The notes beneath the pieces were generated by a model that saw only the letters and a program-made list of their open reading frames with translations, did no database searches and was not told the DNA's origin. A DNA stretch of 64,000 nt, taken from the IMG/VR virus record IMGVR_UViG_3300042371_000472, positions 1 through 64,000 of that record. One strand, 5' to 3'. Below, piece after piece: positions 938 to 28,601 of the stretch; the first letter of the stretch is position 1; every line of letters begins with the position of its first letter. The position numbers and the translations under genes are program-made. The stretch comes from a virus.

Positions 938-1360
938 ATGGCAGCATTCCACCACTTAAATGATCAACTGTTTATGCCAAAGAGTTGGTTGCGCTCACTA
1001 CCAGTAGACAATGAACTAGATATCGCTGATGTGGAAGATGCAGGTAGTCGCCAAATCCGAGACCCATATACAAATGAACGGCGTTACACGACACCTGAGG
1101 ATGAATTTTGGGATCGTAAGGGTAATGAGGCAATTAATAGTGGAGTATATAAAAGCGTACAGAGACATGGCATTGTAAATCCCGTAGAACTAGGTGTATC
1201 TGGTAGGACCATAGAAATCAAAAATGGGTACCACAGGGTGGCATCCGCTGATGATCACTCATTTATACCTATTACTTATACAAAAAAAGATCAAGTGGAT
1301 GGTTTACCCATACATTATAACCGTTATAATGAAAATCCTGCATATCCACGCTCTGAGTAA
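938..1360 (+). CDS. ParB/sulfiredoxin N-terminal-domain protein
   Basis: SVQRHGIVNPVEL...IKNGYHRVASA matches ParB-N G-x3-P...GxHR pattern. Confidence 0.75.
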   Translation: MAAFHHLNDQLFMPKSWLRSLPVDNELDIADVEDAGSRQIRDPYTNERRYTTPEDEFWDRKGNEAINSGVYKSVQRHGIVNPVELGVSGRTIEIKNGYHRVASADDHSFIPITYTKKDQVDGLPIHYNRYNENPAYPRSE

Positions 1361-1386
1361 CCCTATTCTGATGTAAAATAGTCAGT
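1361..1386 (+). promoter_or_regulatory. Promoter motif CCCTATTCTGAT-TAAAAT, probably leaderless
   Basis: TAAAAT 1374-1379, 7 nt before ATG 1387. Confidence 0.7.
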
Positions 1387-1857
1387 ATGGCATCTAAAAT
1401 CGTATATCACGGCACATTAAGTGAAGAACCACCCCATGAGCATGGTTATCCCTTCCACGCTGGTACCTTGGCATCTGCTGATGAACGACTAGCAGACGAA
1501 ATTCAGAACGGTGATGGCCCCTACCAAACTGGTGTCGCCAGTATCCATGCCTACGAAGTAGATGACGCCACGCCCACCTCACGCCATGTATGGGGCGACC
1601 CCCTGTTTCGTAAAACGGGTCGTGATTATGATGCACATAGGGCGGTACCCGAACATAAAGAGAACCGTATCTATCCGTATAAAAATGCTCATGAGGATCG
1701 TGGCTCCACTTCTTATGTCATCCCCAGTAATTTTGTGGGTAAGCATGTAAAACACCTCGGTGTACAGTTCCAGAGAATTGTTAACCCCTACGATGGTCGT
1801 GCTGAAGCCGTATATAACGCTATGTCCGTAATGTCTGGTGGGAGGTACAAGTCATGA
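1387..1857 (+). CDS. ADP-ribosyltransferase-like protein (ART-PolyVal-like)
   Basis: N-terminal VYHGT, FHAGT-x3-A-x2-R, C-terminal YKNAHEDRGSTSYVI. Confidence 0.6.
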   Translation: MASKIVYHGTLSEEPPHEHGYPFHAGTLASADERLADEIQNGDGPYQTGVASIHAYEVDDATPTSRHVWGDPLFRKTGRDYDAHRAVPEHKENRIYPYKNAHEDRGSTSYVIPSNFVGKHVKHLGVQFQRIVNPYDGRAEAVYNAMSVMSGGRYKS

Positions 1858-2324
1858 GAGCACACATCAGCAAACAATTCGCCAAAGTGACTAGAAATCC
1901 TGGCGATAACCCTGAACAGTTGCAGATGTTCATGCGTCCACATGAGATTTTGAACAAAATATACAGTTTTTCTGATGATTTAGGTGATGATGATGCATTA
2001 GAGCACCTTGATGACCCCAGAGGGTACCCCAACAGCCAATTACACGCCGATAAACTGGGAGAGGCTATAGATTCAGGATTACACGATGGCATTGAGACTG
2101 ATGGAATTCTGAACCATGTCGTCCTAGAGACATCCCCGCACACAAGTAAATTCCGTATGGGTAATGGTCACCACCGACTGTCAGTTGCTTTAGACCTAGA
2201 GAGTAAGGGTCATCAGGTAGATATTCCCGTGATCCATGATAATAACTTTATGTACGACACCACTGATGAGTACAAGCATATGTACGGAAGACCAAAAAAG
2301 TACTTTGGCTATAAAGAGAACTAA
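1854..2324 (+). CDS. ParB/sulfiredoxin N-terminal-domain protein
   Basis: GIETDGILNHVVL...MGNGHHRLSVA; ATGA overlap with upstream gene. Confidence 0.75.
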   Translation: MRAHISKQFAKVTRNPGDNPEQLQMFMRPHEILNKIYSFSDDLGDDDALEHLDDPRGYPNSQLHADKLGEAIDSGLHDGIETDGILNHVVLETSPHTSKFRMGNGHHRLSVALDLESKGHQVDIPVIHDNNFMYDTTDEYKHMYGRPKKYFGYKEN

Positions 2325-2367
2325 TTCTGATATATAATAGTAAGCATTACCCGATAAGGAGTTCATC

Positions 2368-2745
2368 ATGGCTATGAAAAAAGCAATCGCAAAGCGTCCA
2401 GCACACCTATCCGAACAGTTCCAGCCTAAGGGCCGTTCTGAACTAACCCGCCTGAGTGCCGCTCTTGGTGACTACTTGAATACTGAGCGGGAATACACGC
2501 ATATGGAATATGATAACGAGTATGCCAACGAAGAACCTGAGGACACTGAGGGTGAAGAAGCATTCCGCAGGGAGTACCCCATTGCAAGCCCACAGCGCCA
2601 AGATGCTGGTGCAAACATTAGTGACTCCATAGACGAGCATGATGCCGCTGATATGCTTCAGACCTACCGTCGGAATCGTGATTCAGGTCAGAACCAGCAG
2701 TCCCAACGCGAAGATATCCGTCACGCTTACAAGTACTACCGCTGA
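2368..2745 (+). CDS. Acidic hypothetical protein, paralog of 2757-3188
   Basis: AAGGAG RBS; shares KKAIAK-x-PAH-x2-EQF, GRS-x-LTR, DML-x2-YR-x-NRD, REDIR-x-AYK with next gene. Confidence 0.8.
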   Translation: MAMKKAIAKRPAHLSEQFQPKGRSELTRLSAALGDYLNTEREYTHMEYDNEYANEEPEDTEGEEAFRREYPIASPQRQDAGANISDSIDEHDAADMLQTYRRNRDSGQNQQSQREDIRHAYKYYR

Positions 2746-2756
2746 GGAGAAACATC

Positions 2757-3188
2757 ATGGCTGTTAAAAAATCAATGGCAGGAAAGATTGCCGCTGAGGC
2801 AAAGTCTGCACCGCTGAAGAAGGCAATCGCCAAGAAACCAGCGCATATGCCCGAACAGTTCCCTAACGAGAACCGTAGTTTCCGTGGTCGTTCTGACCTT
2901 ACCCGCTTCAGTCGTGTACTTGGTGGTTACTTGGAAGACTCACGGATGGATCATGCAGACCAGTATGACGAAGGTGAGGCTGAGGAAGAGTTCCGTATGT
3001 CGCACTCTATCGCCGGCCCCATGCGCCAGCGCAACAGCAAGTTCATCACTGATGAGATTGGTGAATACGACGCAGAGGATATGCTCCGCGAGTACCGCCA
3101 GAACCGTGATGCTGGCGACACGGACCAGTCGTACAGCCGTGAGGATATCCGCGAGGCTTACAAAAACCGTGCCGACTACACAGGCTGA
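2757..3188 (+). CDS. Acidic hypothetical protein, paralog of 2368-2745
   Basis: GAGGAG RBS; alignable to upstream gene over most of its length. Confidence 0.8.
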   Translation: MAVKKSMAGKIAAEAKSAPLKKAIAKKPAHMPEQFPNENRSFRGRSDLTRFSRVLGGYLEDSRMDHADQYDEGEAEEEFRMSHSIAGPMRQRNSKFITDEIGEYDAEDMLREYRQNRDAGDTDQSYSREDIREAYKNRADYTG

Positions 3189-3237
3189 TTAGGGTTACTA
3201 ATCCTTCCGCGGAGTAGTAAAAATTTGCCGCTTAATT

Positions 3238-3366
3238 ATGTCTGATGATAAATGCGATACCTCCACACAGTGTGTCTATTGCGGTGGAGAACTGCGTCCT
3301 GAGCATGCACACTATAAGTGCGTTGATTGTGGGCAGAGAGATGCCTGTTGTGAGGGCATCTACTAA
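3238..3366 (+). CDS. 42-aa zinc-ribbon mini-protein (not in ORF track)
   Basis: MSDDKCDTSTQCVYCGGELRPEHAHYKCVDCGQRDACCEGIY; two CxxC pairs. Confidence 0.7.
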   Translation: MSDDKCDTSTQCVYCGGELRPEHAHYKCVDCGQRDACCEGIY

Positions 3367-3388
3367 CTATTTAAGGTAAAATAGTTCT

Positions 3389-4300
3389 ATGGCAAAAGAC
3401 AAAAAAGAAGATGCAATTAGGTATTCGCGCATCTCTCCTGATACTCCCGGTAGTTACACTGCCCTGTCTCATGACTATGTAGGCGGTAACGAGGACATAC
3501 CAGATCGCCGTAGAAGAATTATTGATTACATGGCACATGACCGTGATGGTAACTCTCTGGTATATGCCCAAGTAGTGCAAACGCACGGTCAGACATTCAC
3601 TCGCATGACTGCTCCCGAGAGACAAGTGCGCCAGCCCCCGAACCACCTAGAGCACCTAGTCCCTCCTCACCGTAGGGTGGTAAATAACCCCCCTGGTCGC
3701 CCAATGCCTTCACCTGGTGATTTTGTGCATGTAGCGCAAACACCTATTGTTGATTTAGAACGCACAGATGCTAAATCTAAGCCAGTTCCTGGTAAAGACG
3801 ATTACTTTCATGATGGGACTAACACTCGTCCCGCAAAACCCGGTGAGCAATTAGTAATGTTTGGTATAGAGCATAAGCCTACTCGTAGACAGATAACGAG
3901 TTTATATGCCCGAGATAGTACGGCTGGCAAAATTGCGACTATGAATATCCTTGGTATGGCTGATAATGCATCTATGGATGCCCTTGGTCGTGGCTTAATG
4001 CCTGATGATAACTTGTCAGAGCATAGTTTAGGTTTAGTTAAAAAGTTACATAAAAAAGGTGCTATTCCTGAGGAAGATTTACCTGATAAATTAATTCAAG
4101 GTAACGACATGGATTTTTCTGATGCCGCACGAGTTTTAGATACCCAACATACAAGTAAATTTGACAATGGTGAACTTATTAACCTTAATCATCGCCTACC
4201 GCATGCAAAGGCTCGTATTCGCCAAATCTTAGGACGCTCAGTACCAACTCTTAATACTGAACCTAAGAACGAACAGTTACAACTGGAGGGTTTTGAATGA
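3389..4300 (+). CDS. Paralog family member 1, divergent GNAT-like fold
   Basis: LYARDSTAGKIATMNILGMA...LMPDDNLSEHSLGLVKKLHKKG; ends EQLQLEGFE; TAAAAT 6 nt upstream of ATG. Confidence 0.6.
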   Translation: MAKDKKEDAIRYSRISPDTPGSYTALSHDYVGGNEDIPDRRRRIIDYMAHDRDGNSLVYAQVVQTHGQTFTRMTAPERQVRQPPNHLEHLVPPHRRVVNNPPGRPMPSPGDFVHVAQTPIVDLERTDAKSKPVPGKDDYFHDGTNTRPAKPGEQLVMFGIEHKPTRRQITSLYARDSTAGKIATMNILGMADNASMDALGRGLMPDDNLSEHSLGLVKKLHKKGAIPEEDLPDKLIQGNDMDFSDAARVLDTQHTSKFDNGELINLNHRLPHAKARIRQILGRSVPTLNTEPKNEQLQLEGFE

Positions 4301-5049
4301 CTCGCTATTCTCGCTATATACCACCCAGTGATAAAGAGCAAGGTAGAACATCCGACTATGTACCACACGGTGACCAATATGGTGGAATGGATGATTACTT
4401 CGCACATGATGAGTCTGGTAAAGCCATTGCTATGGCTAGAATTTCCCATGATCCAGGACATACCAGTACAGTCATGGATATCTATGGCGCTAATGCAAAC
4501 ACAGGATTAGCCGAAACTACATTAATTGCTGAGGGACAAAGGGTGCATGATGATACTGCCCTTGATTGGCAAGATGGTTTAACTCGCCCCGCTCAGTCAG
4601 GGGAGCAGTTAGTAATGTTTGGAACTTACCACAGACCAGCACGATCTCAGGTGCATGAGTTATATGCCCGCGATAGTTTGTCTGGTAAGACAGCCGCTAT
4701 GAACTTGGTGGGTATGGCTGATATTGCCTCTACAACTACAACTGGTAAGCACCTAAAGCCATCAGGCAATCTTTCTCCTAATAGTAAGTCATTAGTTGAT
4801 AAGTTGCATAAATCTGGTGCTATTTCTGCTGAGGATATGCCAGGAAGGGTATTTGATAATGCTATTGACTTTAATTATGCAAATCAAATGCTTGATCGTT
4901 ACCCACATAGTAACCAGACCCCGCGCCAAGACTTAAACTCACGATTGCCTCACGCAAAGGCTCGTATTCGTCAAGCGATGGGACGATCTGCACCAAACCT
5001 TAATACAGAGCCTAAATCTGAACAACTTCAGTTGGAGGGTTTTGAATGA
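4297..5049 (+). CDS. Paralog family member 2, divergent GNAT-like fold
   Basis: LYARDSLSGKTAAMNLVGMA...LKPSGNLSPNSKSLVDKLHKSG; ends EQLQLEGFE. Confidence 0.6.
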   Translation: MTRYSRYIPPSDKEQGRTSDYVPHGDQYGGMDDYFAHDESGKAIAMARISHDPGHTSTVMDIYGANANTGLAETTLIAEGQRVHDDTALDWQDGLTRPAQSGEQLVMFGTYHRPARSQVHELYARDSLSGKTAAMNLVGMADIASTTTTGKHLKPSGNLSPNSKSLVDKLHKSGAISAEDMPGRVFDNAIDFNYANQMLDRYPHSNQTPRQDLNSRLPHAKARIRQAMGRSAPNLNTEPKSEQLQLEGFE

Positions 5050-5771
5050 CTAAATATTCATTAAAACAAAAAACTTACTCTACAGTAAATGATAAAGAAA
5101 ATCAAAAACGATTTACTTATCTTGATTATGTAGCGCACAACGATAAAGGTAAGGCAATTGCAAAATTAAATGTAACTCACGAGCCAGAGATTAATGCTAC
5201 TCAACAAACTGGTTTCTATACTGGGAAACCAGTAGCAGACATGGAGATGACACATACAGATACTCCTGTTAATGAATCTAACTGGAATAGTACCCCATAT
5301 ACCCGCCCCGCCATGTCTGGTGAACAAATGGCAATGTTTGGTTATAGGCATGTACCCGCAAAAAGAACAGCATCGGGATTTTATTCAGCAGAGGGTTTGG
5401 GCGGTAGAACTGCCGGAATGACATTACTTGGTATAGCAGATAATGCCTCTACTGAGGCAACTGGTAGAAATATTGTCCCATCAAGTAACCTTTCCCAACA
5501 TAGCGGTGGTTTGGTTGACCGATTGCATAAAAGTGGTCATATTTCTGCTGAAGATATGCCAGAAAACAGATTATCTAATACCCATAGTTTTGAGCAGTCA
5601 GACAGTTTTTTAAGACAGGAACACAAAAATCTGGTTGAAATGGCAGGTTCTAGTTACCACTTAGATGATTTATCTTCCCGAGTACCCGCCGCTCGTACCC
5701 GTATACGAGACCTACTTGGAAATGCTAAAAAGGGTGAAGAGCATAAGCAATTGAGCCTTTGGGATGACTGA
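5046..5771 (+). CDS. Paralog family member 3, divergent GNAT-like fold
   Basis: GLGGRTAGMTLLGIA...VPSSNLSQHSGGLVDRLHKSG; ends KQLSLWDD. Confidence 0.6.
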   Translation: MTKYSLKQKTYSTVNDKENQKRFTYLDYVAHNDKGKAIAKLNVTHEPEINATQQTGFYTGKPVADMEMTHTDTPVNESNWNSTPYTRPAMSGEQMAMFGYRHVPAKRTASGFYSAEGLGGRTAGMTLLGIADNASTEATGRNIVPSSNLSQHSGGLVDRLHKSGHISAEDMPENRLSNTHSFEQSDSFLRQEHKNLVEMAGSSYHLDDLSSRVPAARTRIRDLLGNAKKGEEHKQLSLWDD

Positions 5772-6402
5772 CAAAAGAATTCACCACTTCTACCACCTAT
5801 ATGCGGATGGTAACTGGCAGATGTGTGTAGTTGATCATATCCGCGCATTAGTGCAATATGGTTTGTACGAGAATCTTGCTTCATTAAATATTGGCTTTGT
5901 GGGAACACCTCAGAACATTCTTATGGCTCAGGAATACCTTACTTTAAGGGGATTGACTTATAATGTTGCCGCAACCAGCCCAGATGGATGGGAACAAGTA
6001 ACTCTTGACCCACTTTACGAAATGGCTGTCAATGAACCTGATGCATACTATGTGTACGCACATACCAAGGGTGCGGCTAACTTTGCCCCAATCAACGAAG
6101 TCTGGCGTAATGGTATGACGCGCTTTAACATTGTGAACTGGCAAAGAGCCGTAGAAGTATTAGATGAGGGTTACACCACTGCTGGTTGTCATTACTACCC
6201 CATTAACTTTGACAATCCCAATCCATTTTGGGGTGGCAACTTTTGGTGGGCGACAGGTAAGCACATCACCATGCTAGGTATCTGCGAAAAAGACCACCGC
6301 CACCGCGCTGAAGCATGGGTGGGCAGGATTAACGAAGACCCGTACTACAGACACTACGACCTATTTCCAGTTGGTATTGGAACTGTAGCGGAACCCTTTT
6401 AG
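5764..6402 (+). CDS. Putative glycosyltransferase-like protein (HTKG...WR...GNFWW family)
   Basis: YAHTKG, WRNGM, FWGGNFWWAT, RHRAEAWVG; pattern reminiscent of RgpF-like proteins. Confidence 0.5.
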   Translation: MTDKRIHHFYHLYADGNWQMCVVDHIRALVQYGLYENLASLNIGFVGTPQNILMAQEYLTLRGLTYNVAATSPDGWEQVTLDPLYEMAVNEPDAYYVYAHTKGAANFAPINEVWRNGMTRFNIVNWQRAVEVLDEGYTTAGCHYYPINFDNPNPFWGGNFWWATGKHITMLGICEKDHRHRAEAWVGRINEDPYYRHYDLFPVGIGTVAEPF

Positions 6403-6902
6403 TTCATATTAATGGCGTCAACATAGATGTCACCATGTGTGCGATCAACAATAATATCCACACACTTCCAATTGGTCTCAACAAGAGCCTTGGATAGGTC
6501 TTCTACATCCACATTGCCGTAAAACTCATCAACTGGCATACCAGGTGTACCAACTGCGGCATGGGGGGCGCGTGGGTCAGTAGCGCAAGTAACTAGGAGT
6601 GTTCCACCAGGATTAATTGCCTTTCCCAAGGTAACTAAAATCTTACGGTAATCCTCAGGAGTGACATGCTCAAACACCTCCGTGCAGAGTCCCATGTCCC
6701 ATTTACGAGTCGGCTCCCAATTTGTGGCGTCAGCCACAATGTCTACGCCTTTACCACCAATATGATCAAGAGTTACATATTTGGACTTAGGCCAGAGATC
6801 ACGGGGTGTCCCGTTAATGTTTCTGCCACCAATATCAATGATTGACTTGGGAGATATCTCTAATGACTTATTGACTAAGAATGTCCAGGCTTCTGCATGC
6901 AT
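6399..6902 (-). CDS. Class I SAM-dependent methyltransferase
   Basis: IIDIGG motif I, VDIVADA, CTEVFEH, PGGTLLVT; start reassigned to MHAEAW at 6902. Confidence 0.85.
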   Translation of the reverse strand: MHAEAWTFLVNKSLEISPKSIIDIGGRNINGTPRDLWPKSKYVTLDHIGGKGVDIVADATNWEPTRKWDMGLCTEVFEHVTPEDYRKILVTLGKAINPGGTLLVTCATDPRAPHAAVGTPGMPVDEFYGNVDVEDLSKALVETNWKCVDIIVDRTHGDIYVDAINMN

Positions 6903-6923
6903 ATACATAGTATAATCATAAAT
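6903..6923. promoter_or_regulatory. Bidirectional leaderless promoter with overlapping -10 boxes
   Basis: AGTATAAT: plus TATAAT 6911-6916 then ATG 6924; minus TATACT 6914-6909 then ATG 6902. Confidence 0.7.
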
Positions 6924-7604
6924 ATGCCGATTGAGTACCGTAGATTCCATACACCAGCACAAGACTCAGGTGGTAGGCGTTCACCCGCAAAAACTACCTA
7001 TTTTGCGTTTGACCCACATAGTAAGCGAGATTTGGGGTTAGTTCAGGTAGAGCACCACGACGACACCCAGTGGACTAAGAACGAACCATCAGATAAGAAA
7101 TACTACCCTAAGGATTACAACACAAATCCCGATGCTCGTGTTATTAGTCAGGGGCGTTTGTTCTCTGATTATGGTAAACCAGCACACCGTAAATTGTCCA
7201 TGATGGCTGGAACTATGGGTGGTAATAACACCACGGCAATGAGTCTCATGGCTCTTGCTCACCAGGACGCCACTGAGTCTGGTGTGCCGTTAATTCCTGA
7301 CCATTCTCTGACACGGGACAGCCACAGAGTTGTCCGCCATCTTGCAAAGTTTGGTGTTGTTGACAAACGCGATGTGCCAAAGCGAGCAACGGTACCACCA
7401 GGGCGAGTCACGCCCCTCTTTAGCAATTACATGCACGAGTATGATGGAACTGAAGGGGTAGAGGCAATTCACCCTGATGTTGTTCGTGAGGCGCGCAATA
7501 CATTGGTGGGTCGCGTACGACGCAGTAAGCAAGAGAAAGCGCCTAAGACTAAGCGCGGTCAACCGATTGAGGGACAGCAATCATTGTTTGGAGAGGACCA
7601 ATAA
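6924..7604 (+). CDS. Paralog family member 4, divergent GNAT-like fold
   Basis: GGNNTTAMSLMALA...LIPDHSLTRDSHRVVRHLAKFG; ends GQQSLFGEDQ; start reassigned to MPIEY. Confidence 0.55.
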   Translation: MPIEYRRFHTPAQDSGGRRSPAKTTYFAFDPHSKRDLGLVQVEHHDDTQWTKNEPSDKKYYPKDYNTNPDARVISQGRLFSDYGKPAHRKLSMMAGTMGGNNTTAMSLMALAHQDATESGVPLIPDHSLTRDSHRVVRHLAKFGVVDKRDVPKRATVPPGRVTPLFSNYMHEYDGTEGVEAIHPDVVREARNTLVGRVRRSKQEKAPKTKRGQPIEGQQSLFGEDQ

Positions 7605-7849
7605 TGAACGATATTACAAACATTAAAGCCATCAGCATGCGGATTCTGGCAGTATTTGCCGCCTCAGCACTTGGTGTGGTTGGAGCGGGCGCTATTGCAG
7701 GTGTACCATTATGGAAAGCCTGCCTCATGGCTGGTATCGGTGGTATGTCCACAGTTATTGAAGGACTTGCGCGGGCATACATTGATGATGGTAAGTTAGA
7801 CGCTGGAGAGATCAATTCAGTGTTTGACAAGATTGAAAAGACGGAGTAA
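7604..7849 (+). CDS. Small two-TM membrane protein, holin candidate
   Basis: Two hydrophobic segments, charged C-terminus (DDGKLDAGEIN). Confidence 0.5.
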   Translation: MNDITNIKAISMRILAVFAASALGVVGAGAIAGVPLWKACLMAGIGGMSTVIEGLARAYIDDGKLDAGEINSVFDKIEKTE

Positions 7850-8400
7850 TGCCTGCTCACGAGTACATTAATAAAGACCAAACGCTATTTCATGGAACCA
7901 GCGGACACAATGTAAAGAGCATCCTTCAGCACGGTATATCACCCTCAGGTGATGATGTAATCGCAGGTATTCCTGGCGCATACATGACTACTCGTGAGGT
8001 TGACGCCCGTGCATGGGGTGACCATGTTGTCACGACACAGCCAACTCGTGCATTGCGTATCTATGGGGATATCAATGACGATCCACATTTAGAGAATCAG
8101 CGACAAACCACTCAGGCGTTAAATGACTACCATGACTATGGTAAATCTGATCCTGAAGAATGGTTAGATGATCACGGTGGTCACTTTGACATGAGCCATT
8201 ATGGTACGGGTCATCAGGCAGTCCATAATTGGGCAAAATCTAATAAGAACACTGAGAATGTTGCTGACACACTCTCAAGTTGGGGTTATCATGGCAACCG
8301 CGATAGTATCGCCGCGTGGAGTCCAGATGCAGATGTCACCATCTACAATCCGGAGGAACACTTAAAAGTGACTGGAATTAACGGTCCATCTTTTATATAA
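7849..8400 (+). CDS. ADP-ribosyltransferase-like protein (H-Y type)
   Basis: LFHGTS-x5-SILQHGI...GAYMTT-x4-A-x2-W. Confidence 0.7.
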   Translation: MPAHEYINKDQTLFHGTSGHNVKSILQHGISPSGDDVIAGIPGAYMTTREVDARAWGDHVVTTQPTRALRIYGDINDDPHLENQRQTTQALNDYHDYGKSDPEEWLDDHGGHFDMSHYGTGHQAVHNWAKSNKNTENVADTLSSWGYHGNRDSIAAWSPDADVTIYNPEEHLKVTGINGPSFI

Positions 8401-8451
8401 AAAGTAACTAAAAAGTAATATAAGAAAAAACTACACAATTAGGAGAATCAC

Positions 8452-8718
8452 ATGAGTTCTAACCTTATCCGCGAGCATCTCGCAAGTATCCACGACGATC
8501 TTTTACTAATGGATGGTCTGGATGATGCCATTATCGGCACATCACAAAGAATCAATGAGCCTGTGCTCGCCGTTTATAGTTGGGAAAAGATTATTACAAT
8601 CCTGACAGAGCGCGACAATATGGACTTTGAAGACGCTGTGGAGTTTATTGAATTCAATATCCTTGGCTCTTGGGTCGGAGAAAATACCCCAATTGTTGTC
8701 ATGCCTCTTGACTGGTAG
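8452..8718 (+). CDS. Conserved phage hypothetical protein
   Basis: AGGAG RBS; DGLDDAIIG...EDAVEFIEFNILGSWVGENTP pattern familiar from aquatic phages. Confidence 0.75.
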   Translation: MSSNLIREHLASIHDDLLLMDGLDDAIIGTSQRINEPVLAVYSWEKIITILTERDNMDFEDAVEFIEFNILGSWVGENTPIVVMPLDW

Positions 8719-8745
8719 AATAATCTCCAAAGTATTGGAGGCTAT

Positions 8746-9309
8746 ATGGCTAAGAGAAAAATACCAAAGCGTATTATTGATTGGGATGAAGTAGTCAATA
8801 CTCACGCTGGTTCTGAGGTTCAAGTTCATAAAGACTCTGGCTCATCTGGAGTTAAATACATGAAGGAACATGGTTCGCCATTATTCTCAGTATTAGCCAA
8901 AGACGATACAGGTGAACATCGGTATTTTGGATCAGTTTCTCGTTCTTCTGTTGAGTTTCCCCGTATTAGGATAGATGCAACTCAGTTAGCGGATCATTGG
9001 AACTCCACTACTGGACAAAAATCACGAAATACATTTCTTATGGGTCACCCAATTGCTATGCCCTCATCTACAGAAATGTCGCGGGCACATCGTCTTATCC
9101 TAAAAGCAGGGCAGGCTGGTACTGAGGATGATCCAACTTCTATTATCCACACCCCAAGCCAGCCAGGTCTTTGGACACCCCGACCAAGGCAAACATCAAA
9201 ACCAATACCAGGATTAGTACCTGTACCAGGCATACGGAGAACTTCACCAGTATTTGCTGAACGAGCGGGTATTGGTGATACTGGTTCATTTATGTTTAAC
9301 CCACGGTAG
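8746..9309 (+). CDS. Hypothetical protein
   Basis: GGAGG RBS, 187-aa ORF colinear with neighbours. Confidence 0.7.
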   Translation: MAKRKIPKRIIDWDEVVNTHAGSEVQVHKDSGSSGVKYMKEHGSPLFSVLAKDDTGEHRYFGSVSRSSVEFPRIRIDATQLADHWNSTTGQKSRNTFLMGHPIAMPSSTEMSRAHRLILKAGQAGTEDDPTSIIHTPSQPGLWTPRPRQTSKPIPGLVPVPGIRRTSPVFAERAGIGDTGSFMFNPR

Positions 9310-9357
9310 TGATATATCGTGTAAAATAAAACCATACCGAAACACGGAGGTTTTATA

Positions 9358-9627
9358 ATGGTAATGAATCATAGAGGACAAGACACTACAGCCCGCGTAT
9401 GGATGCATGGCGTTGAAGACATGCGCGCAGGAGCGCGTCGTGGATCAGTAACGCATGCAACTAGTGGTCGTGGTGTAAGCGAACAAGAAGCCGCTGAAAT
9501 GCAAGGCCAGTACGGAGCAGTCCCCGTAGTAAGCGGTGACCCCGAAGGTGAAGGCGACATGGCTGATCAGTGGTTGCAAGAAGCCGAAGCATCCACCATT
9601 GCTGGCAATATGGGTCGCCGCGGATGA
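9358..9627 (+). CDS. Hypothetical protein, paralog of 9624-9926
   Basis: GGAGG RBS; NHRGQDT-x-AR-x-WMHGVEDMR-x2-ARRG, ADQWL. Confidence 0.8.
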   Translation: MVMNHRGQDTTARVWMHGVEDMRAGARRGSVTHATSGRGVSEQEAAEMQGQYGAVPVVSGDPEGEGDMADQWLQEAEASTIAGNMGRRG

Positions 9628-9926
9628 CTCTTAATCACCGAGGACAGGACACGCGCGCTCGTCCGTGGATGCACGGCGTTGAAGACATGCGCGAAAACGC
9701 TCGTCGTGGTACGGCAACCTACGCATTTAGCGACCGTGGAATGAGTGAACAAGAAGCCGTTGAAATGCAAAGGATGCATGGCGTAAGCACTGTAGACCCA
9801 CTTCTTGACGATGGTGTTGAAGATTATGGCGACGCCGCTGACCAATGGTTGAGTGTTAACGACACTAGAGATAACCCCTACATTGGTGGCAGAATGCCAG
9901 ACCCACGAGTAGACAAAAAATACTAG
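9624..9926 (+). CDS. Hypothetical protein, paralog of 9358-9627
   Basis: Start reassigned to MTLNHRGQDT (ATGA overlap). Confidence 0.8.
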   Translation: MTLNHRGQDTRARPWMHGVEDMRENARRGTATYAFSDRGMSEQEAVEMQRMHGVSTVDPLLDDGVEDYGDAADQWLSVNDTRDNPYIGGRMPDPRVDKKY

Positions 9927-9942
9927 TTATACTCGTATAACT
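9925..9942. promoter_or_regulatory. Inverted repeat AGTTATAC-TC-GTATAACT overlapping a -10 (TATACT)
   Basis: Perfect 8-bp arms immediately before ATG 9944. Confidence 0.5.
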
Positions 9943-9943
9943 T

Positions 9944-10102
9944 ATGATCATCACCTATGACATCAACACCCCATATATTGGCGATGTGCGTTCTATTGCG
10001 ATGCGCCGAGCCAAGGCTGAGGGTTGGCAGAATGTCGTAGTGGTGAGCACCTATCCAGTTGGACCCAACTCGTGGTCTGTGACACTCACCGTTTCGCGTT
10101 AA
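9944..10102 (+). CDS. 52-aa hypothetical protein (not in ORF track)
   Basis: MIITYDINTPYIGDVRSIAMRRAKAEGWQNVVVVSTYPVGPNSWSVTLTVSR fills the gap. Confidence 0.6.
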   Translation: MIITYDINTPYIGDVRSIAMRRAKAEGWQNVVVVSTYPVGPNSWSVTLTVSR

Positions 10103-10105
10103 GTC

Positions 10106-10384: not shown

Positions 10385-10547
10385 CCAGACAGGTAAGGGC
10401 GCAGTCTTAGGACTTATCGCATATTGCTTCCGCAATAATCCTGAATTCGCCGTTATCCTTATGCCCGCAGTATCCGCTGTAATGGCATGGGCGTCTACCC
10501 TTATTGGTAACCCCAACATTGCATCCTTCTTGGAAAAGAAGAAGTGA
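10365..10547 (+). CDS. Small membrane protein, holin candidate
   Basis: Two hydrophobic stretches, ends KKK; GGAGG RBS. Confidence 0.5.
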   Translation: MKNQIADQTGKGAVLGLIAYCFRNNPEFAVILMPAVSAVMAWASTLIGNPNIASFLEKKK

Positions 10548-11821: not shown

Positions 11822-11823
11822 CC

Positions 11824-20056: not shown

Positions 20057-20866
20057 ATGAATTACCCCTGCATCAAATTGGTGGTCCCAACCGCTCTCAA
20101 ACAGTATAAGAACGGTCAGTTAGCACCAAGCGTTTTGGCTTCCGTTAAAACTGGCGGAAAGATGTACGCACCAGTTGCAGAGCAATTCAATAAGTTGTAC
20201 GACGCCGCTCTCGCCGCTGGCTTCAAGTTGAAGAATGTGGGCGACTACCGCTCATTTGAAGGTCAACTAACAATGTTTATGGACCGCTATGTCACCGAAG
20301 ATACTGGTACTGGCGTTACACGCAAGTACGAGGGTAAGACATGGTACCTCAAGAAGGGTAAAGCCCCTTCAGCCGCTCCAGACCCCACGGGTCTCAAGGG
20401 TTCAAACCATGGCTGGGGTCTCGCAATTGACCTTGGTTATGATGTCAACGGCAAACTTACCTCAATGGGTGGCAAGTGTTTTGAGTGGATGTGCGCTAAT
20501 GCCCCCTCATATGGTTTCTACTTGCAGGGTTCTGACCCTAAGTCAAAAGAGTTTGAGGCATGGCACTGGCAGTACTGCCTCGGTGATGCCACCCCTAATG
20601 GCGCACCCGCTCCCGTAGCACCAGCCACCGCTCCTGCACCTGCTCCAGCAGGCGCACCCGCACTTACTTTTACTTACCCAGGAACACCCGTTAAGCAGGG
20701 TTCAAAGGGTGACGCCGTCAAGTTGGTTCAGGCAATCGTTGGCGCAAAGCCCGATGGTGACTTTGGTGCCAAGACCCATGAACTTGTCCGTAACTGGCAG
20801 AAGTCCAAGGGTCTTACTTATGATGGCGTTGTTGGTCCGACGACATGGAAAGCCATGTTCGGCTGA
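20057..20866 (+). CDS. Endolysin: peptidase M15 (VanY-like) plus peptidoglycan-binding domain
   Basis: YRS-x3-Q, SNHGWGLAID, EAWHW; PDGDFG / YDGVVGPTTW. Confidence 0.9.
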   Translation: MNYPCIKLVVPTALKQYKNGQLAPSVLASVKTGGKMYAPVAEQFNKLYDAALAAGFKLKNVGDYRSFEGQLTMFMDRYVTEDTGTGVTRKYEGKTWYLKKGKAPSAAPDPTGLKGSNHGWGLAIDLGYDVNGKLTSMGGKCFEWMCANAPSYGFYLQGSDPKSKEFEAWHWQYCLGDATPNGAPAPVAPATAPAPAPAGAPALTFTYPGTPVKQGSKGDAVKLVQAIVGAKPDGDFGAKTHELVRNWQKSKGLTYDGVVGPTTWKAMFG

Positions 20867-22119: not shown

Positions 22120-23694
22120 ATGAGTGAAGAATCAGATGTTGAGGATACGGAATACAACGAAGACATTGGTGACTATCAAGAGGAAGAACTAGACGAAACA
22201 TCTACGGAATTCGTTGACCAACTGGTCATGAAGTTAATCGTCTTTACCGAAGAGTTCTGTAATGTCACCCTGTTCCCCTATCAGGTCCCGATTGCCTATC
22301 GGATCATTGAGTCCATCGTCCTTGGCGACGGTGAAGAACTAACCCTCGTTGCGACCCGTCAGTCTGGTAAGTCTGAGGTTCTTTCTAATGTCATGGCATC
22401 CATGATGGTCATTCTCCCGCGCCTGTCCAAGGTCTACCCAACATGGCTGGGTAAGTTTGAGAAGGGCTTTTGGTGTGGTGTGTTTGCCCCCGTTGAGGAT
22501 CAGGCTGACACGGTGTTTGGTCGTATCGTCAGCAAGTTGACCAGCGAACACGCCATGAACTTCCTCCTTGATCCTGAGATTGATGATAAGGCGTCATCAG
22601 GTGGCGCTCGCGGTAAGGGTCGTATTATCAGCCTGAAGAAGTCAGGGTCACTCTGCCGTATGCAGACCTGTAACCCTAAGGCAAAGATTGAATCTAAGAC
22701 CTACCACTTCGTCATGATTGACGAAGCACAAGAGGCCGATGAGTTCATGATTTCTAAATCAATTAAGCCGATGTTAGCGTTCAACAACGGTTCTATTGTT
22801 CTTACGGGCACGGCTACTAGGAATAAGTCTTACTTTTATAAGATGATCCAGTTTAATAAGCGCCGTGACACAAACGCCAGACGGGGCCACAGACAGGCGC
22901 ACTTTGAGTATGACTGGCGAGTTGCCGCTAAATACAACGATAACTACGGCAAGTTCATTGCTAAGGAAAAGACCCGTATCGGGGAAGACTCCGACGAGTT
23001 CCAAATGTCCTACTGCAACAAGTGGATTTTGGAAAAGGGTATGTTTGTCACCGAGGAACGCCTAGAGCGCCTGTACGACCCGTCTATGGCTATTGTGAAG
23101 AAGTGGTGGCGTAGCCCCATTGTCATGGGTATAGATGTGGCGCGAACCAATGACTCCACCGTGGCTACAGCCGTATGGGTGGACTGGGACCACCCTGATG
23201 GGTTTGGTTTCTTTGAGCACCGCGTCCTTGACTGGCTGGAAATCAACAATGTTGAGTGGGAACAGCAGTACTTTGAAATGATTGACTTCATCCGTAACTT
23301 TGATGTCTACCGCATTGGTGTGGACTCTCAAGGTGTGGGTGGCGCTGTTACCGAGCGACTACAACTCTTGCTCCCTGAGATTGAGGTAGTCGCTGTCTCG
23401 TCTGACGCCAAGACTCAGAACGAGCGTTGGGTACACCTGACCGAATTAATGCAACGAGAGCAGTTGATTATTCCTGGGCACTCCAAGGCGCGCCGTACCC
23501 GATCATGGAAAAAGTTCAACCAGCAGATGTGCGACCTTGAAAAGGTTTACCGTGGCCCGTACCTACTAGCCGCCGCTCCTGATGAGAAGGGTGCATTTGA
23601 TGACTACCCCGATTCTCTAGCAATTGCTTGCAGTATGACGGCATTAGAAGTAATGCCAATGGTGGAGTCATTTAACTCTCCCTTTTATAGGTAA
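22120..23694 (+). CDS. terL: Terminase large subunit
   Basis: Walker A RQSGKS, Walker B VMIDEAQ, RNase H MGIDVA and DDYPDS. Confidence 0.93.
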   Translation: MSEESDVEDTEYNEDIGDYQEEELDETSTEFVDQLVMKLIVFTEEFCNVTLFPYQVPIAYRIIESIVLGDGEELTLVATRQSGKSEVLSNVMASMMVILPRLSKVYPTWLGKFEKGFWCGVFAPVEDQADTVFGRIVSKLTSEHAMNFLLDPEIDDKASSGGARGKGRIISLKKSGSLCRMQTCNPKAKIESKTYHFVMIDEAQEADEFMISKSIKPMLAFNNGSIVLTGTATRNKSYFYKMIQFNKRRDTNARRGHRQAHFEYDWRVAAKYNDNYGKFIAKEKTRIGEDSDEFQMSYCNKWILEKGMFVTEERLERLYDPSMAIVKKWWRSPIVMGIDVARTNDSTVATAVWVDWDHPDGFGFFEHRVLDWLEINNVEWEQQYFEMIDFIRNFDVYRIGVDSQGVGGAVTERLQLLLPEIEVVAVSSDAKTQNERWVHLTELMQREQLIIPGHSKARRTRSWKKFNQQMCDLEKVYRGPYLLAAAPDEKGAFDDYPDSLAIACSMTALEVMPMVESFNSPFYR

Positions 23695-24145: not shown

Positions 24146-24147
24146 TC

Positions 24148-24621
24148 ATGGGTGATACCGGGAATTTCTCGGTAGTTGGCCCGGCACCGAGTAGTACATT
24201 CGGGTCATCCCCGGAACTGTCTAATTATCAGGCAGTTGCGGGGATGTTTCGTCGCGTCCAAAAAGGTAATGAATTAGTTACGGCGCGCGCTGACAACTTT
24301 GGTATTGTTACCAAGATTTCTAGCCCCTTCGTGCCTAGCCCCCTCGGTGGCAAAGTAGCACTCAATATGCCCCGCTATGCATCAGGTATTGGTGAATTCG
24401 TTCTTGATCCGATGCAGAACTTCAAGTCTGAGAAGTTAGACCTAGAGGGCCGTAAGTACGGCAACTCTACGATTACTAACCCAGGTCAGAAGTTTGATTC
24501 TAATAAGTTACGCCGTAAAGGCGTCTCATCTTATAACCGCTATAAGGCTGGTAAGACTTCTTATATGCCAGGCCGATTTGGGCATAGTTCATACAAGCCC
24601 GGAAAGATTCAGGCGTTCTGA
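24148..24621 (+). CDS. Basic hypothetical protein
   Basis: Colinear ORF. Confidence 0.65.
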   Translation: MGDTGNFSVVGPAPSSTFGSSPELSNYQAVAGMFRRVQKGNELVTARADNFGIVTKISSPFVPSPLGGKVALNMPRYASGIGEFVLDPMQNFKSEKLDLEGRKYGNSTITNPGQKFDSNKLRRKGVSSYNRYKAGKTSYMPGRFGHSSYKPGKIQAF

Positions 24622-26051
24622 TGGCTAAGAAAAAGAAAAAGTTAATTGCACCAGTCCGCGATACGACGCGCACGGATAGCCCTGTTGATCCTGGATACCC
24701 AATCCCAGCAAAAGCACCATCATACAGAGATATTCCTACTAAAAAAGGTAGAAAAGCCATTGATACTGCAATGTCACAGGCTGGTAAGAATGCGTATGGG
24801 TCACCAATACGCATGGCTGATGCTGTGGCAACTCGTGTAAATGCTCTTCAAGCGGCTCTGGCTCGCACAACCTTTCAAGTCGGACTTGGTAATCAACCTA
24901 TGGGGTCACACATTCCCCCAGGATTAGGTTGGTATGGTGAGCACCAACAGGCATACAGAGAGGCATCAGAAAGAACAGGTACCCGTATTGGAAGCCTTAT
25001 TGACGCTGGTGCTGTAGCCAGTGCTCGTAACACTCCTGAGAAAGAACGATTAGCCGCTGAATCAGCAGGTTATATCGCCGCTAACCCTGATCGTAAAGTA
25101 ACAATTACTGATGAGATGGCTCCGCACATGGGTAATCCAGATATTAAACCGGGGGAACACCGCATCGGGACAGGCCGCGACGGTGATGGTTTATCAGACG
25201 AAGATGTAGCGCATATCGGTTACGCAGAGACCCAAGCACTTAAGGGTTTGGGTCATGTAAATAAACAAGGAAACGCCCTTAGCGATAAAAGATTTACTCC
25301 AAGAGAATTTACTGGAGTAACTTTGGATTCGGCGGGACGCGATGTCGGTGCTAAGGTTGTCGCTGTCGCTCGCGGAAAAACATTTGATGAGGTTACTAAG
25401 GGAGCGACTCCTAAGACTCGTAACTTTTCACGAGCAACTCATTTAATGAGTCGTGAAGAAACTGCATATAACTCAGAAGTTCTTAGGCGCATAGCGTCAG
25501 TTCCTACCTTTGTAGAAGGTGACGGAAAGGGTGGAACAAATTATTCCTATCAGGAACATCTTTTTTCTCCATATGAAAAAACTGCGGCTGAGATTGCAAA
25601 CTTTGATCCAAGCACGGCAGATGAAAGTGTTGAAGATTATGTGATGAACGAAATGAGTGCCCATGTAGCCGCGTCTAAGGGTAAAACTGGTAAAACGGCT
25701 AGAGAAGCACAAGAAATTGTAAAACCACCAAAGGGTAAAAATGTATTTGACCCTAGTTTTGATCCTGAGGAAATGCGTCATGCATTTAATGAGGAATCTA
25801 CGCGACGGGCCGCTATGCAAATTGGTATTGCTGGGGAAAGCCTAACTACGCGGGGCGCTCAGGCTATTTCATGGGTGGAACGCCGACGACATACTCTTGG
25901 TGAAGATAAAGAATACAACAAAGCCCAAAAGCAACTTGCTAAGGATGCCAAGAAGGCAAGTAAGGCAAAAGAAAAAGCACCCACTCCCCCAACTGTTACT
26001 GAGGATAAAGGACCTACTCCTGAAGAAAGAGGACAACTTACATTGTTCTAA
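24621..26051 (+). CDS. Divergent HhH/DNA-glycosylase-like phage protein with C-terminal QLTLF
   Basis: GLGWY...GAVASAR...PKTRNF...AA-x3-G...AQAISWVERR. Confidence 0.45.
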   Translation: MAKKKKKLIAPVRDTTRTDSPVDPGYPIPAKAPSYRDIPTKKGRKAIDTAMSQAGKNAYGSPIRMADAVATRVNALQAALARTTFQVGLGNQPMGSHIPPGLGWYGEHQQAYREASERTGTRIGSLIDAGAVASARNTPEKERLAAESAGYIAANPDRKVTITDEMAPHMGNPDIKPGEHRIGTGRDGDGLSDEDVAHIGYAETQALKGLGHVNKQGNALSDKRFTPREFTGVTLDSAGRDVGAKVVAVARGKTFDEVTKGATPKTRNFSRATHLMSREETAYNSEVLRRIASVPTFVEGDGKGGTNYSYQEHLFSPYEKTAAEIANFDPSTADESVEDYVMNEMSAHVAASKGKTGKTAREAQEIVKPPKGKNVFDPSFDPEEMRHAFNEESTRRAAMQIGIAGESLTTRGAQAISWVERRRHTLGEDKEYNKAQKQLAKDAKKASKAKEKAPTPPTVTEDKGPTPEERGQLTLF

Positions 26052-26117: not shown

Positions 26118-26276
26118 ATGCGCCCGTCAGATGCCGCATTAATTACACAATATCTTAAGAGACTTGCGCCCCGTGGACACACAGAGGAGCAAGAGGTGCT
26201 ACGGTTGATATCAGTTCTTGGAGGAATCCAGAAAATGTCACACAATAAGGAGCAGAAAGTTGAGCGAGTTAAGTAA
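26118..26276 (+). CDS. 52-aa hypothetical protein (not in ORF track)
   Basis: AAGGAG RBS; MRPSDAALITQYLKRLAPRG... Confidence 0.6.
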   Translation: MRPSDAALITQYLKRLAPRGHTEEQEVLRLISVLGGIQKMSHNKEQKVERVK

Positions 26277-26526
26277 TGAATTGCTCTCGCGTGGTCCAAT
26301 TAATTGGGGGTGTGGTATTGCCACCCTCAGGGACGAACTTCACGGAGATGAACTAACCGCACTAAACACCGCATTAGAAAGAATTATGACTGACCCAGGA
26401 AAGGGTAGGTCTAAGGTATATTCTTCTATGTGGTTAGCGAATGTGCTAGTTAAGCACGGACATCAAATTAGCCGAAGCACCATAGAACGACATATAAAGG
26501 GGAAGTGCAGTTGTGGCAAGCCTTAG
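26260..26526 (+). CDS. HTH / Zn-binding small protein
   Basis: ISRSTIERHIKGKCSC; TTG start after AAGGAG. Confidence 0.6.
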   Translation: MSELSNELLSRGPINWGCGIATLRDELHGDELTALNTALERIMTDPGKGRSKVYSSMWLANVLVKHGHQISRSTIERHIKGKCSCGKP

Positions 26527-27658
26527 TGATGATTTAGGAACACCCCCAGCAAAAGCAACATTGGGAAAGATTGCGGAGTTATTAAACCGCAATAACATTG
26601 ATGTTGAAGAAGTGGGGTCAATCAAGCGCGTATCCCTCTACCAATCACTCACTAAGAATGACCAAGGTCAGGCTGAGGTTCACGACCTCATGGGTATCCA
26701 ATTCAACCCCAAGTGGGCTGAAGGGCCTGATTGGCCCGTGGTACAACCAGGGCCGTCAATCAAACTCCCAGTACGCAAAGTAATACAAAGTAATACAGAG
26801 GGATACAAAGTAGCGGTTATCCTCCCCGACATGCAGATCGGTTACTACCGAAATGCTGACGGGAGCCTGGAACCCACCCATGATGAAGAGGCTCTCTCTA
26901 TCTCCATGGCAATTATCAAGAAGTTGAATCCTGACCGAATTATCATGGTCGGTGACAACCTTGACTTTCCTGAGTTCGGTAAGTACCGTCTCAGCCCAGC
27001 ATACGCAATTACTACTCAGGCATCTATTGACCGCGCCACAACACTATGCGCGGAACTTCGTGCCGCCGCACCAAACGCCGTCATAGATTGGATTTCAGGT
27101 AACCATGAAGAACGACTCGTCAACTTCATCTTGGACAATGCAAAGGTTTCGTTCGGCTTGCGTCGGGGGAATACTCCGGATTCTTGGCCTTGCCTTAGTG
27201 TGCCTTATCTATGTCGTTTCAATGATTACGGGGTTAATTATGTGGCTGGCTACCCTGCTGGACAAGTATGGATTAATCAAAGGCTCAAAGTCATCCACGG
27301 AAACAAGGTCAGGTCTAACGGTTCAACCGCCCACGCCTACCTCAACGACAGCAAGGTATCCGTCATCTACGGGCACATTCACCGTAGGGAATGGGCTGAA
27401 CGGTCACGCGAGGACTGGGATGGGGCAAAGACCATCATGGCGGCGTCACCAGGGACACTAGCCCGCTGTGACGGTGCTGTACCCAGTACCAAGGGCGGTA
27501 TGGACCTAGACGGTCGCCCAATGACCATTGTGGAGGACTGGCAACAGGGTCTAGCCGTTGTCTCTTATGAGGATGGCGAAGGCGCCTTTTGGTATGAACA
27601 GATACCTATCCATAATAAGACCGCTTTTTTCCGTGGTAAGGTTTACTCTCCGGAATGA
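26513..27658 (+). CDS. Calcineurin-like metallophosphoesterase
   Basis: PDMQ, GDNLD, GNHE, IHG, GHIHR motifs. Confidence 0.9.
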   Translation: MASLSDDLGTPPAKATLGKIAELLNRNNIDVEEVGSIKRVSLYQSLTKNDQGQAEVHDLMGIQFNPKWAEGPDWPVVQPGPSIKLPVRKVIQSNTEGYKVAVILPDMQIGYYRNADGSLEPTHDEEALSISMAIIKKLNPDRIIMVGDNLDFPEFGKYRLSPAYAITTQASIDRATTLCAELRAAAPNAVIDWISGNHEERLVNFILDNAKVSFGLRRGNTPDSWPCLSVPYLCRFNDYGVNYVAGYPAGQVWINQRLKVIHGNKVRSNGSTAHAYLNDSKVSVIYGHIHRREWAERSREDWDGAKTIMAASPGTLARCDGAVPSTKGGMDLDGRPMTIVEDWQQGLAVVSYEDGEGAFWYEQIPIHNKTAFFRGKVYSPE

Positions 27659-27954
27659 TTGGGGTGGGTCGTATGTCTGACAAGGAAAACCTTAAGGCAG
27701 TTGTTGTCGTTTGGGATGACGCGTTTGATGGCCCTGGTGGATGGATTGATCCAGCCAAGTATGAACCACGCATTATTGACCCCATTACTATTGGCTGGGT
27801 TATAGATGAACATGCCGAGAAGTACCTGACCTTGTACTCGTCCTTCTATTATGACGATGATGGTATACTTATTTGTTCAAATCCTATGCATATTCCTCGT
27901 GGTATGATTAGGTCTATTACTCCCGTAAAGATAAAGAAGTCAGGGGACAGTTGA
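27655..27954 (+). CDS. Conserved phage hypothetical protein
   Basis: VVWDDA-x5-W...TIGW...IPRGMI. Confidence 0.7.
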   Translation: MIGVGRMSDKENLKAVVVVWDDAFDGPGGWIDPAKYEPRIIDPITIGWVIDEHAEKYLTLYSSFYYDDDGILICSNPMHIPRGMIRSITPVKIKKSGDS

Positions 27955-28601
27955 TGGGTCTACGCCGTAGGAATAGAGGATCACGCGCTGATACTCGTCG
28001 TGGTGAATTGTCACCCGCTGAAATTGCAAAGCATGGACCACAAAAGCCTGATGATGGGTTTTCTATACGCACATCTGGTCGTGGTGCAGGTGGTCCTGCT
28101 CGTAATGTTTTTTCTGTTGGTTATGCACCCGAATCAGGTCGCGGGGCTGAAGTTCCAGTAGACCCCTCTGAACCTGCAACTACCCAACTTCTTGACTTTA
28201 ACCGACGAAACGCAGATGTACTGGGTTCCCCAGGCGCAAATATGATTCAAGGTGGCTGGCATGACCCGTCAACTGGCATTGTCCAGCAAGATACCTCTGT
28301 AGCACTACCAAAAACTGCTGGTGGTCTTGAAGCCGCTATGCAAATTGGGGCATTGGGTCGTCAAGATTCCATAGGTAATGTTGGCCCTAATGCCAAAACC
28401 CCATATATCGGTGACATAAAAATTCCTACGCATCTACATCCAGAGCAATTTTGGCATGAGGGAACTTCACCCCTTGTGACAGATAAGGGCATTGACCCCA
28501 CATCGGGACGACGCCGTGTAAGTATTCTTCCACCGCGTCAAGAAATGGTCGGCGTAGAAGCATCAATTTTAGCCGAACAACTCGGATTACCTAAGGATTA
28601 A
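27951..28601 (+). CDS. Hypothetical protein, possible SAM-lyase/DUF3293-like fold
   Basis: GGWHD...QDTS...EAAMQIGALGRQDSI; contains HLHPEQF. Confidence 0.4.
   Translation: MMGLRRRNRGSRADTRRGELSPAEIAKHGPQKPDDGFSIRTSGRGAGGPARNVFSVGYAPESGRGAEVPVDPSEPATTQLLDFNRRNADVLGSPGANMIQGGWHDPSTGIVQQDTSVALPKTAGGLEAAMQIGALGRQDSIGNVGPNAKTPYIGDIKIPTHLHPEQFWHEGTSPLVTDKGIDPTSGRRRVSILPPRQEMVGVEASILAEQLGLPKD

Follow-up and report, generated by a model that had tools for sequence, protein, structure and literature searches.

Q-x-x-L-[FW] tails on proteins of an uncultured actinophage as candidate docking motifs for the host sliding clamp

Results

Proteins sharing a terminal peptide

The DNA analysed here (the window) spans the first 64 kb of the 92,482-bp IMG/VR virus record IMGVR_UViG_3300042371_000472, rated 98% complete by CheckV, and our subject is a short peptide of the Q-x-x-L-[FW] type, hereafter the tag, in which five of its proteins end: four tandem paralogs with a predicted GNAT-like fold (3389-7604) and a 476-amino acid (aa) protein (24621-26051). 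An earlier note, made from the sequence, had read the tag as a binding motif for the bacterial beta sliding clamp, DnaN, and every peptide that it quoted was found where it had been placed. The genes concerned, together with two ParB-like genes carrying motifs at their N-termini, are the following (nt, nucleotides):

938..1360, + strand: second putative ParB/Srx-like protein, with a GYHR motif and N-terminal HLNDQLF, recognised by eye
1854..2324, + strand: ParB/Srx-like protein, with N-terminal HISKQF ... EQLQMF (nt 1860-1931), then a variable acidic linker
3389..4300, + strand: GNAT-like paralog 1, 303 aa; tag EQLQLEGFE-stop at nt 4271-4297; internal GEQLVMFG
4297..5049, + strand: GNAT-like paralog 2, 250 aa; tag EQLQLEGFE-stop at nt 5020-5046; internal GEQLVMFG at nt 4600-4623
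5046..5771, + strand: GNAT-like paralog 3, 241 aa; tag KQLSLWDD-stop at nt 5745-5768; internal GEQMAMFG
6924..7604, + strand: divergent GNAT-like paralog 4; tag GQQSLFGEDQ-stop at nt 7572-7601; internal QGRLF
24621..26051, + strand: 476-aa helical, DUF7178-related protein; K/A/P-rich linker, tag GQLTLF-stop at nt 26031-26048

The carriers had been described as unrelated or distantly related, but the four tandem ones belong to one paralog family. The window thus holds two independent C-terminal instances and one N-terminal instance.

Five of the 155 called open reading frames (ORFs) of the whole 92-kb genome are tagged within their last 14 residues, where residue shuffling predicts 0.07, and none of 2000 shuffles reached five; with the paralogs collapsed to one, two tagged ORFs stand against 0.06 expected (a value of two was reached by 3 of the 2000 shuffles); the tag pattern used in these tests was picked with the data already in view. 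When 7164 ORFs from this genome and from related loci L001-L091 were scanned in all six frames, 84 tagged ORFs came out, one of them noise and the other 83 falling into four protein families:

Family 1, 48 ORFs: relatives of the 476-aa protein
Family 2, 27 ORFs: GNAT-like paralogs
Family 3, 6 copies: a 101-109-aa protein adjoining WhiB, in high-G+C relatives
Family 4, 2 copies: in L050 and L051, an ORF of 340 aa (stop to stop) lying immediately upstream of the gene of the 476-aa family

By chance, the tag turns up in about one of every 3500-7000 ORFs. Three further complete genomes of the lineage, scanned throughout, have zero to two strictly tagged ORFs each. The 101-109-aa protein ends in Q-x-R-L-F and is encoded just downstream of a WhiB homologue in L029, L046, L069, L072, L076 and L089. 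GQLTMF and EQETMF were rejected as tags because they lie within what we take to be VanY-type lysin motifs, in 20057-20866 and 39869-42586; the endolysin (20057-20866) and the tape-measure protein (39869-42586) share the lysin-type motif YRS-x-x-x-Q-x-x-MF, a false positive of the loose pattern.

The GNAT-like paralogs

The four paralogs are 23-46% identical in pairwise comparison (23% between paralogs 4 and 2), with a variable, indel-rich N-terminal half, and relatives carry three to five copies. The start of paralog 4 at 6924, as first assigned, fits the N-termini of the other paralogs better than does the longest ORF start, at 6897. The AlphaFold2 model of paralog 2 has a predicted local distance difference test score (pLDDT) of 83.6, falling below 50 in tail residues 237-250. 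Foldseek placed acetyltransferases at the top for this model, among them TacT and AtaT, toxins that acetylate tRNA (best E value 0.016, probability 0.97), and an exhaustive structural search with VIA aligned about 100 residues over positions 1-187 at middling Z scores (Z 5.5-7.1, root-mean-square deviation 2.6-3.7 Å); almost all of the 50 chains listed were acetyltransferases, and 107 chains had a Z of at least 5. The modelled fold is therefore GNAT-like, which agrees with the label first given to these proteins, the support being at the level of the fold, and Pfam and PHROG scans of the paralogs, as of all the other carriers, gave no match. A conserved R-D-S-x-x-G-K-T-A loop stands before a long helix and differs from the canonical acetyl-CoA pyrophosphate-binding motif, Q/R-x-x-G-x-G/A.

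The C-terminal tag is kept in all 77 homologues of the paralog family except truncated ones. Near-identical orthologues swap EQLQLEGFE for EQLQLSLWDE or EQLSLWDD (P0010, P0026), and the forms can therefore be regarded as equivalent. In pairwise comparison of eight EQLQLEGFE tails that differ in DNA sequence, the last nine codons showed 111 synonymous and no non-synonymous differences, as against 46 synonymous and 86 non-synonymous ones in the nine codons preceding the tag. Selection therefore acts on the tag peptide and not on the DNA.

Within the GNAT-like fold, Q104 and F108 of the internal motif are invariant, and the segment is modelled at a pLDDT of about 85 and runs straight into a core strand. 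In the model this motif more likely forms part of the fold or of the active site than a free docking peptide, and it may, with lower probability, act as a docking motif in a loop. The internal variants had been counted as further tags; we do not retain them as such, the GNAT-like one lying in a confidently modelled fold and QEHLF, within the 476-aa protein, being rejected because it aligns with a family-wide Q-G-x-L-D-L block.

Some 520 bases (6402-6924) between a 212-aa ORF (5764-6402) and the fourth paralog contain no convincing gene on the + strand; a 187-aa minus-strand ORF that overlaps this gap may be spurious.

The 476-aa protein and its family

The model of the 476-aa protein is helical (pLDDT 79.9), with tail residues 455-476 below 50. 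Foldseek against the PDB returned noise only and the ESM Atlas nothing usable for this protein; in BFVD the model matched uncharacterised phage proteins and segments of ART-PolyVal (ADP-ribosyltransferase, ART) polyvalent proteins, with E values down to 2.5e-11. A profile search of 1.84 billion representatives yielded 104 relatives, the distant ones touching Pfam DUF7178 (PF23802) and phrog_3842, both families of unknown function. Relatives linked by hidden Markov model (HMM) scored 14.5-27.0 bits against DUF7178, whose cut-off is 27, and covered part of the profile; the window protein itself gave no match to PF23802 at an E value of 0.01 or better. The glycosylase-like label given in the earlier note found no support, and the protein is better described as a DUF7178-related helical protein.

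GQL[ST]LF is kept in this family behind a K/A/P-rich linker that varies in both length and sequence, and the tag persists in relatives as remote as HMMs can detect: Q-x-x-L-[FWLY] stands within the last ten residues of 40 of the 89 distant relatives that are full-length, compared with 0.6% of random windows of the same proteins. Among non-redundant tails of the family, 72/137 contain Q-x-x-[LMIF]-[FWL] in the last 25 residues, at the very end in 53 of the 72, with the consensus [PK]-G-Q-[LG]-[ST]-L-F (position 3 is S or T in 45 of them, position 4 is L in 66 and position 5 is F in 64). Many other relatives carry variants (QLPGF, QLTLPGFE, QQSLGF), a tag with a basic tail behind it, or two tandem tags. 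In both C-terminal families, then, homologues keep the tag as the linkers drift, the pattern of conservation that had been proposed as a check.

A locus scan was run with the subgroup alignment A4 of the family as query, the full alignment A3 being too diverse, and 71 IMG/VR loci spanning 44-67% G+C hold the gene. Its conserved neighbourhood is anchored in the window by two genes:

22120..23694, + strand: large terminase, upstream anchor
28607..30280, + strand: portal, downstream anchor

The family gene lies downstream of a terminase homologue in 57/71 loci and upstream of a portal homologue in 54/71. Terminase, portal and capsid of the tag-bearing contigs are about 54-57% identical to those of the window, the 476-aa family being too diverged for tblastn. 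The gene evolves fast but keeps its slot and its tail. A calcineurin-like metallophosphoesterase gene (26513-27658; Pfam E value 1.1e-4, below the cut-off) accompanies it between terminase and portal; in Streptomyces phage LuckySocke a gene annotated 'phosphoesterase', likened by annotation only, is found upstream of the terminase instead.

ParB-like proteins and a second short motif

EQLQMF occupies residues 21-26 of the 1854-2324 product, whose first 35 residues, including HISKQF, are almost invariant in 25 homologues. ESM Atlas neighbours of this protein contain ParB_N in 26-98% of members (template modelling score 0.44-0.52), and GHHR and GYHR, corresponding to the conserved G-x-x-R site of ParB, are present in the 1854-2324 and 938-1360 products, respectively. 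The ParB-like label first proposed thus stands at the level of the fold, with no Pfam match for either product and no HMM match for the 938-1360 product in Pfam and PHROG scans. HLNDQLF of the latter is a weak candidate for a tag.

A second motif, h-x-x-Q-F (HISKQF, HLSEQF, HMPEQF, LSSQF, LGEQF), often stands 3-20 residues upstream of a Q-x-x-L-F tag or alone at N-termini. It was seen in the window at 1860-1931 and at the N-termini of 2368-2745 and 2757-3188, in the tails of P0122, P0126, P0130, P0142 and P0180, and in L050:1021-1788; GNAT-like variants end LGPQFTQMQLEGFE. The two motifs may together form a two-part docking module.

Genome, replication module and host

Nearly all window genes are on the + strand, and the G+C content is 41-50%. 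Genes for tail fibres, lysis, terminase, portal, capsid and tail occupy about 10-50 kb, and a replication module with DnaC-like loader, DnaB, DnaG primase, family-A polymerase and RecA lies at 54-63 kb:

54027..61442, + strand: DnaC-like loader, DnaB, DnaG and PolA, the phage's own replication genes; no clamp, no strict tag

As the earlier note had stated, DnaB, DnaG and PolA carry no obvious motif and the window no clamp gene. The latter statement extends to the whole 92-kb genome, in which beta-clamp, gp45-type and PCNA-type domains (PF00712, PF02767, PF02768, PF09116, PF00705) gave no match, although a very divergent clamp could escape these models, and PF00712 and PF02768 gave none in five tag-bearing related genomes that are 85-100% complete. 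Between the DnaC-like loader and DnaB, 54620-55054 encodes a 144-aa protein with QQAVLF at residues 13-18, possibly an N-terminal tag on a protein of the replication module.

Two WhiB-family genes lie beyond the window (73312-73512 and 75513-75710), both above the Pfam cut-off; among 14 control genomes WhiB matched in Corynebacterium only. The nearest cultured terminases are those of Streptomyces phages, at 46-47% identity. The host is therefore almost certainly an actinobacterium, and the evidence, the G+C content of the window included, suggests a freshwater one. In a host search of genome contigs the GNAT-like family had no match, and the phage RecA matched only phage-like contigs binned into unrelated metagenome-assembled genomes. 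Cultured phages gave no nucleotide match to window bases 1-25,000 and no tblastn match for the paralog at 4297-5049 or for four relatives of the 476-aa protein, neither tagged family was found in LuckySocke, the nearest cultured relative by terminase, and no cultured model system was found for the tagged families.

Other features of the first 12 kb are given here for completeness. A scan of 1-12000 for promoters and terminators gave nothing above chance. The 183-aa product of 7849-8400 matches the PARP catalytic domain weakly (E value 0.0033, below the cut-off), has an H-G-T motif at its N-terminus, and is a candidate ADP-ribosyltransferase without a C-terminal tag. Overlapping small ORFs at 9358-9627 and 9570-9926 are paralogs with the common start N-H-R-G-Q-D-T-x-A-R-x-W-M-H-G-V-E-D-M-R. 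Ahead of the tail-fibre genes, 10544-11821 encodes a 425-aa protein with a signal-peptide-like start, a long Thr/Ser/Pro-rich stretch, acidic repeats and a hydrophobic C-terminal segment, which looks like a secreted or surface mucin-like protein.

Discussion

A striking feature of this phage and its relatives is the conservation of a short terminal peptide on proteins that otherwise diverge freely. We propose, with a probability of roughly 0.6, that the tags are short linear docking motifs for the hydrophobic cleft of the host DnaN sliding clamp. The bacterial clamp-binding consensus is QL[SD]LF (PMC12867686), and the window tags QLTLF, QLSLW and QQSLF match it or the related hexapeptide form, as does the family consensus G-Q-[LG]-[ST]-L-F, EQLQLEGFE being a looser fit; the identification of the motif made in the earlier note is in this respect borne out. 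The likeness extends to proteins of the inferred host phylum. The clamp peptide of mycobacterial ImuB, QLPLWG, is proven (PMC10421592), and the C-terminal clamp peptide of the mismatch repair endonuclease NucS is ELTLF-stop in Corynebacterium glutamicum; NucS of Mycobacterium smegmatis ends in EYRLF-stop, and deletion of its last five residues abolished mismatch repair (PMC11551767). For comparison, the 476-aa protein of the window ends in LTLF-stop, its relative P0156 in EYRLF-stop, and paralogs in QLSLWDD or QLSLWGDQG.

The context of the tags is also that of docking peptides. In both AlphaFold models they sit on disordered termini (pLDDT below 50) behind linkers of variable sequence, in keeping with the flexible K/P-rich tail described at the outset. 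The forms QLxLF, QLSLW, QxSLxF and QLxLxGF are degenerate yet interchangeable, in both families and within one phage, which fits the known tolerance of the clamp cleft. The motif occurs at either protein end, C-terminal in the paralogs and the 476-aa protein and N-terminal in the ParB-like family, as is also the case for Hda and MuC. Since no clamp domain was found in the phage, the target, if the tag is a clamp motif, would be the host clamp.

Several observations weigh against this interpretation. Since other genomes of the lineage have few tagged ORFs or none, the five-protein set is peculiar to this clade and is chiefly a product of the GNAT-like expansion; a multi-protein strategy is thus local to the clade and owes its extent largely to the duplication of one gene. 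Of the tags, EQLQLEGFE departs most from the pentapeptide clamp consensus. A single head module, with terminase, portal and capsid, is common to all tag-bearing contigs, and conservation of the tag is therefore compatible with a conserved phage receptor. Finally, the 476-aa gene lies in the packaging module and its fold recurs in segments of polyvalent proteins that are delivered in the capsid, which would fit a loading signal equally well.

These last points lead to the least improbable of the alternatives, namely that the receptor of the tag is a hub protein of the phage itself (such as portal, scaffold, capsid or terminase) and that docking there loads stand-alone effectors into the head for injection, the effectors being a separate-gene counterpart of a polyvalent protein. 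The slot of the 476-aa gene between terminase and portal in most loci, the ART-PolyVal matches of its fold and the conservation of head proteins across all tag-bearing contigs speak for such loading, and GNAT, ParB and ART domains are typical capsid-packaged polyvalent cargo (PMC5512222), with the weak PARP-like ART gene at 7849-8400 close by. However, this putative ART has no tag, the small WhiB-adjacent tagged protein of the relatives lies outside the structural module, the motif of the ParB-like protein sits at the N-terminus, and no known capsid-targeting signal resembles the tag; moreover, the close match to the host NucS and ImuB clamp peptides would have to be a coincidence. We consider head loading the less likely reading, though a serious one. 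Docking onto another host hub, such as RNA polymerase, some other protein of the replisome or of repair, or a protease or unfoldase recognising hydrophobic C-terminal ends, appears less probable again: such ends are read by several bacterial machines, and the upstream h-x-x-Q-F hints at a composite site absent from known clamp clients, but the consensus agrees with the clamp motif in having Q (position 1), S or T (3), L (4) and F (5), and is to our knowledge unlike the SSB tail or ssrA-type degrons. That the tags are structural ends serving oligomerisation or autoinhibition, and resemble clamp motifs by chance, is very improbable. The ordered internal Q-x-x-[LM]-F of the GNAT-like fold (pLDDT about 85) illustrates that such motifs can be structural; against this, the tails are modelled as disordered, the linkers vary freely in length and sequence, the same tag occurs on at least four unrelated families, and its chance rate is very low.

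If the tags do bind the host clamp, the following picture can be drawn. The phage presumably replicates with its own PolA, DnaB and DnaG and would not need a clamp, and host clamps loaded on DNA could serve its tagged proteins as a landing pad, concentrating the diversifying GNAT-like acyltransferases, the DUF7178-related protein and probably the ParB-like protein on replicating or nicked DNA. With several tagged proteins present, host polymerases, repair enzymes and NucS would also face competition for the two pockets of the clamp. The fixed place of the 476-aa protein between terminase and portal suggests that it may be either an effector delivered with the virion or a factor connecting packaging with replicated DNA that the clamp has marked, a connection of the kind proposed for T4. 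Whether the proteins would jam the replisome or ride on it, both of which the earlier note had envisaged, is a matter of inference only. Taken as a whole, the proposal is that a clamp-less actinophage lineage uses the host clamp as a common landing pad by means of a NucS-like tail on an ancient and rapidly evolving DUF7178-related protein, that three to five diversifying GNAT-like acyltransferases and a ParB-like protein join it in this clade, and that their joint effect is to modify or cut DNA marked by the clamp, or proteins of the replisome, to dislodge host polymerases and mismatch repair, and perhaps to tie packaging to replicated DNA. We offer this composite scheme tentatively, and regard it as considerably more doubtful than the docking itself.

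Phage proteins with motifs for the host clamp have been published before, so that the tags are less exceptional than the earlier note supposed. The late and middle transcription activators of phage Mu, MuC and Mor, have near-consensus terminal clamp motifs and bind the host beta clamp; MuC has two terminal motifs, and its overexpression is toxic via the clamp (PMC12867686). The likeness lies in phage proteins with clamp motifs at their termini, but MuC, which comes from a phage of proteobacteria, is a small transcription factor that binds DNA, whereas the GNAT-like, ParB-like and DUF7178-related proteins described here belong to an actinophage and are candidate clamp binders. NucS/EndoMS and ImuB share with the tags nearly the same residues, the extreme C-terminal position and the (inferred) host phylum; they are host repair proteins, however, and the phage tags would be mimics that compete for the same cleft. 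In T4, gp43, gp33 and gp55 are clients of the clamp gp45, and coupling of packaging to the clamp has been reported (cited in PMC12867686). Here the resemblance is that several phage proteins carry one terminal hydrophobic clamp tag and that a link between clamp and packaging has been proposed, but T4 encodes its own clamp and loader, and clamp domains were not found in this phage or in five relatives. Staphylococcal phages encode clamp inhibitors that block the host clamp, a case of pure inhibition. Among mobile elements, TnpA of the Tn3 family is a clamp-targeted protein, with a role in target-site choice (PMC11417375). TnpA and the staphylococcal inhibitors resemble the present case in being products of selfish elements that act on the host clamp via its peptide cleft, to use it or to block it, but they belong to other protein families and have other aims. 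Polyvalent proteins (Iyer et al. 2017, PMC5512222) share the GNAT, ParB-like and ART repertoire, and segments of such proteins match the 476-aa protein in fold; their domains are fused in one polypeptide, whereas the carriers here are separate ORFs of 140-476 aa, and that paper makes no mention of the clamp or of the tag motif. What would be new here are the carrier families, an actinophage lineage in which no clamp of its own was found, and the apparent mimicry of the NucS tail.

Should the tails bind DnaN, three families of unknown function (the DUF7178-related and GNAT-like proteins and the small WhiB-adjacent protein) would gain a place of action. Phages that replicate without a clamp would nevertheless exploit that of the host, through mimicry of the exact peptide that host repair enzymes carry at the C-terminus, and the cleft of the actinobacterial clamp, the binding site of griselimycin, would have natural peptide ligands in the tails.

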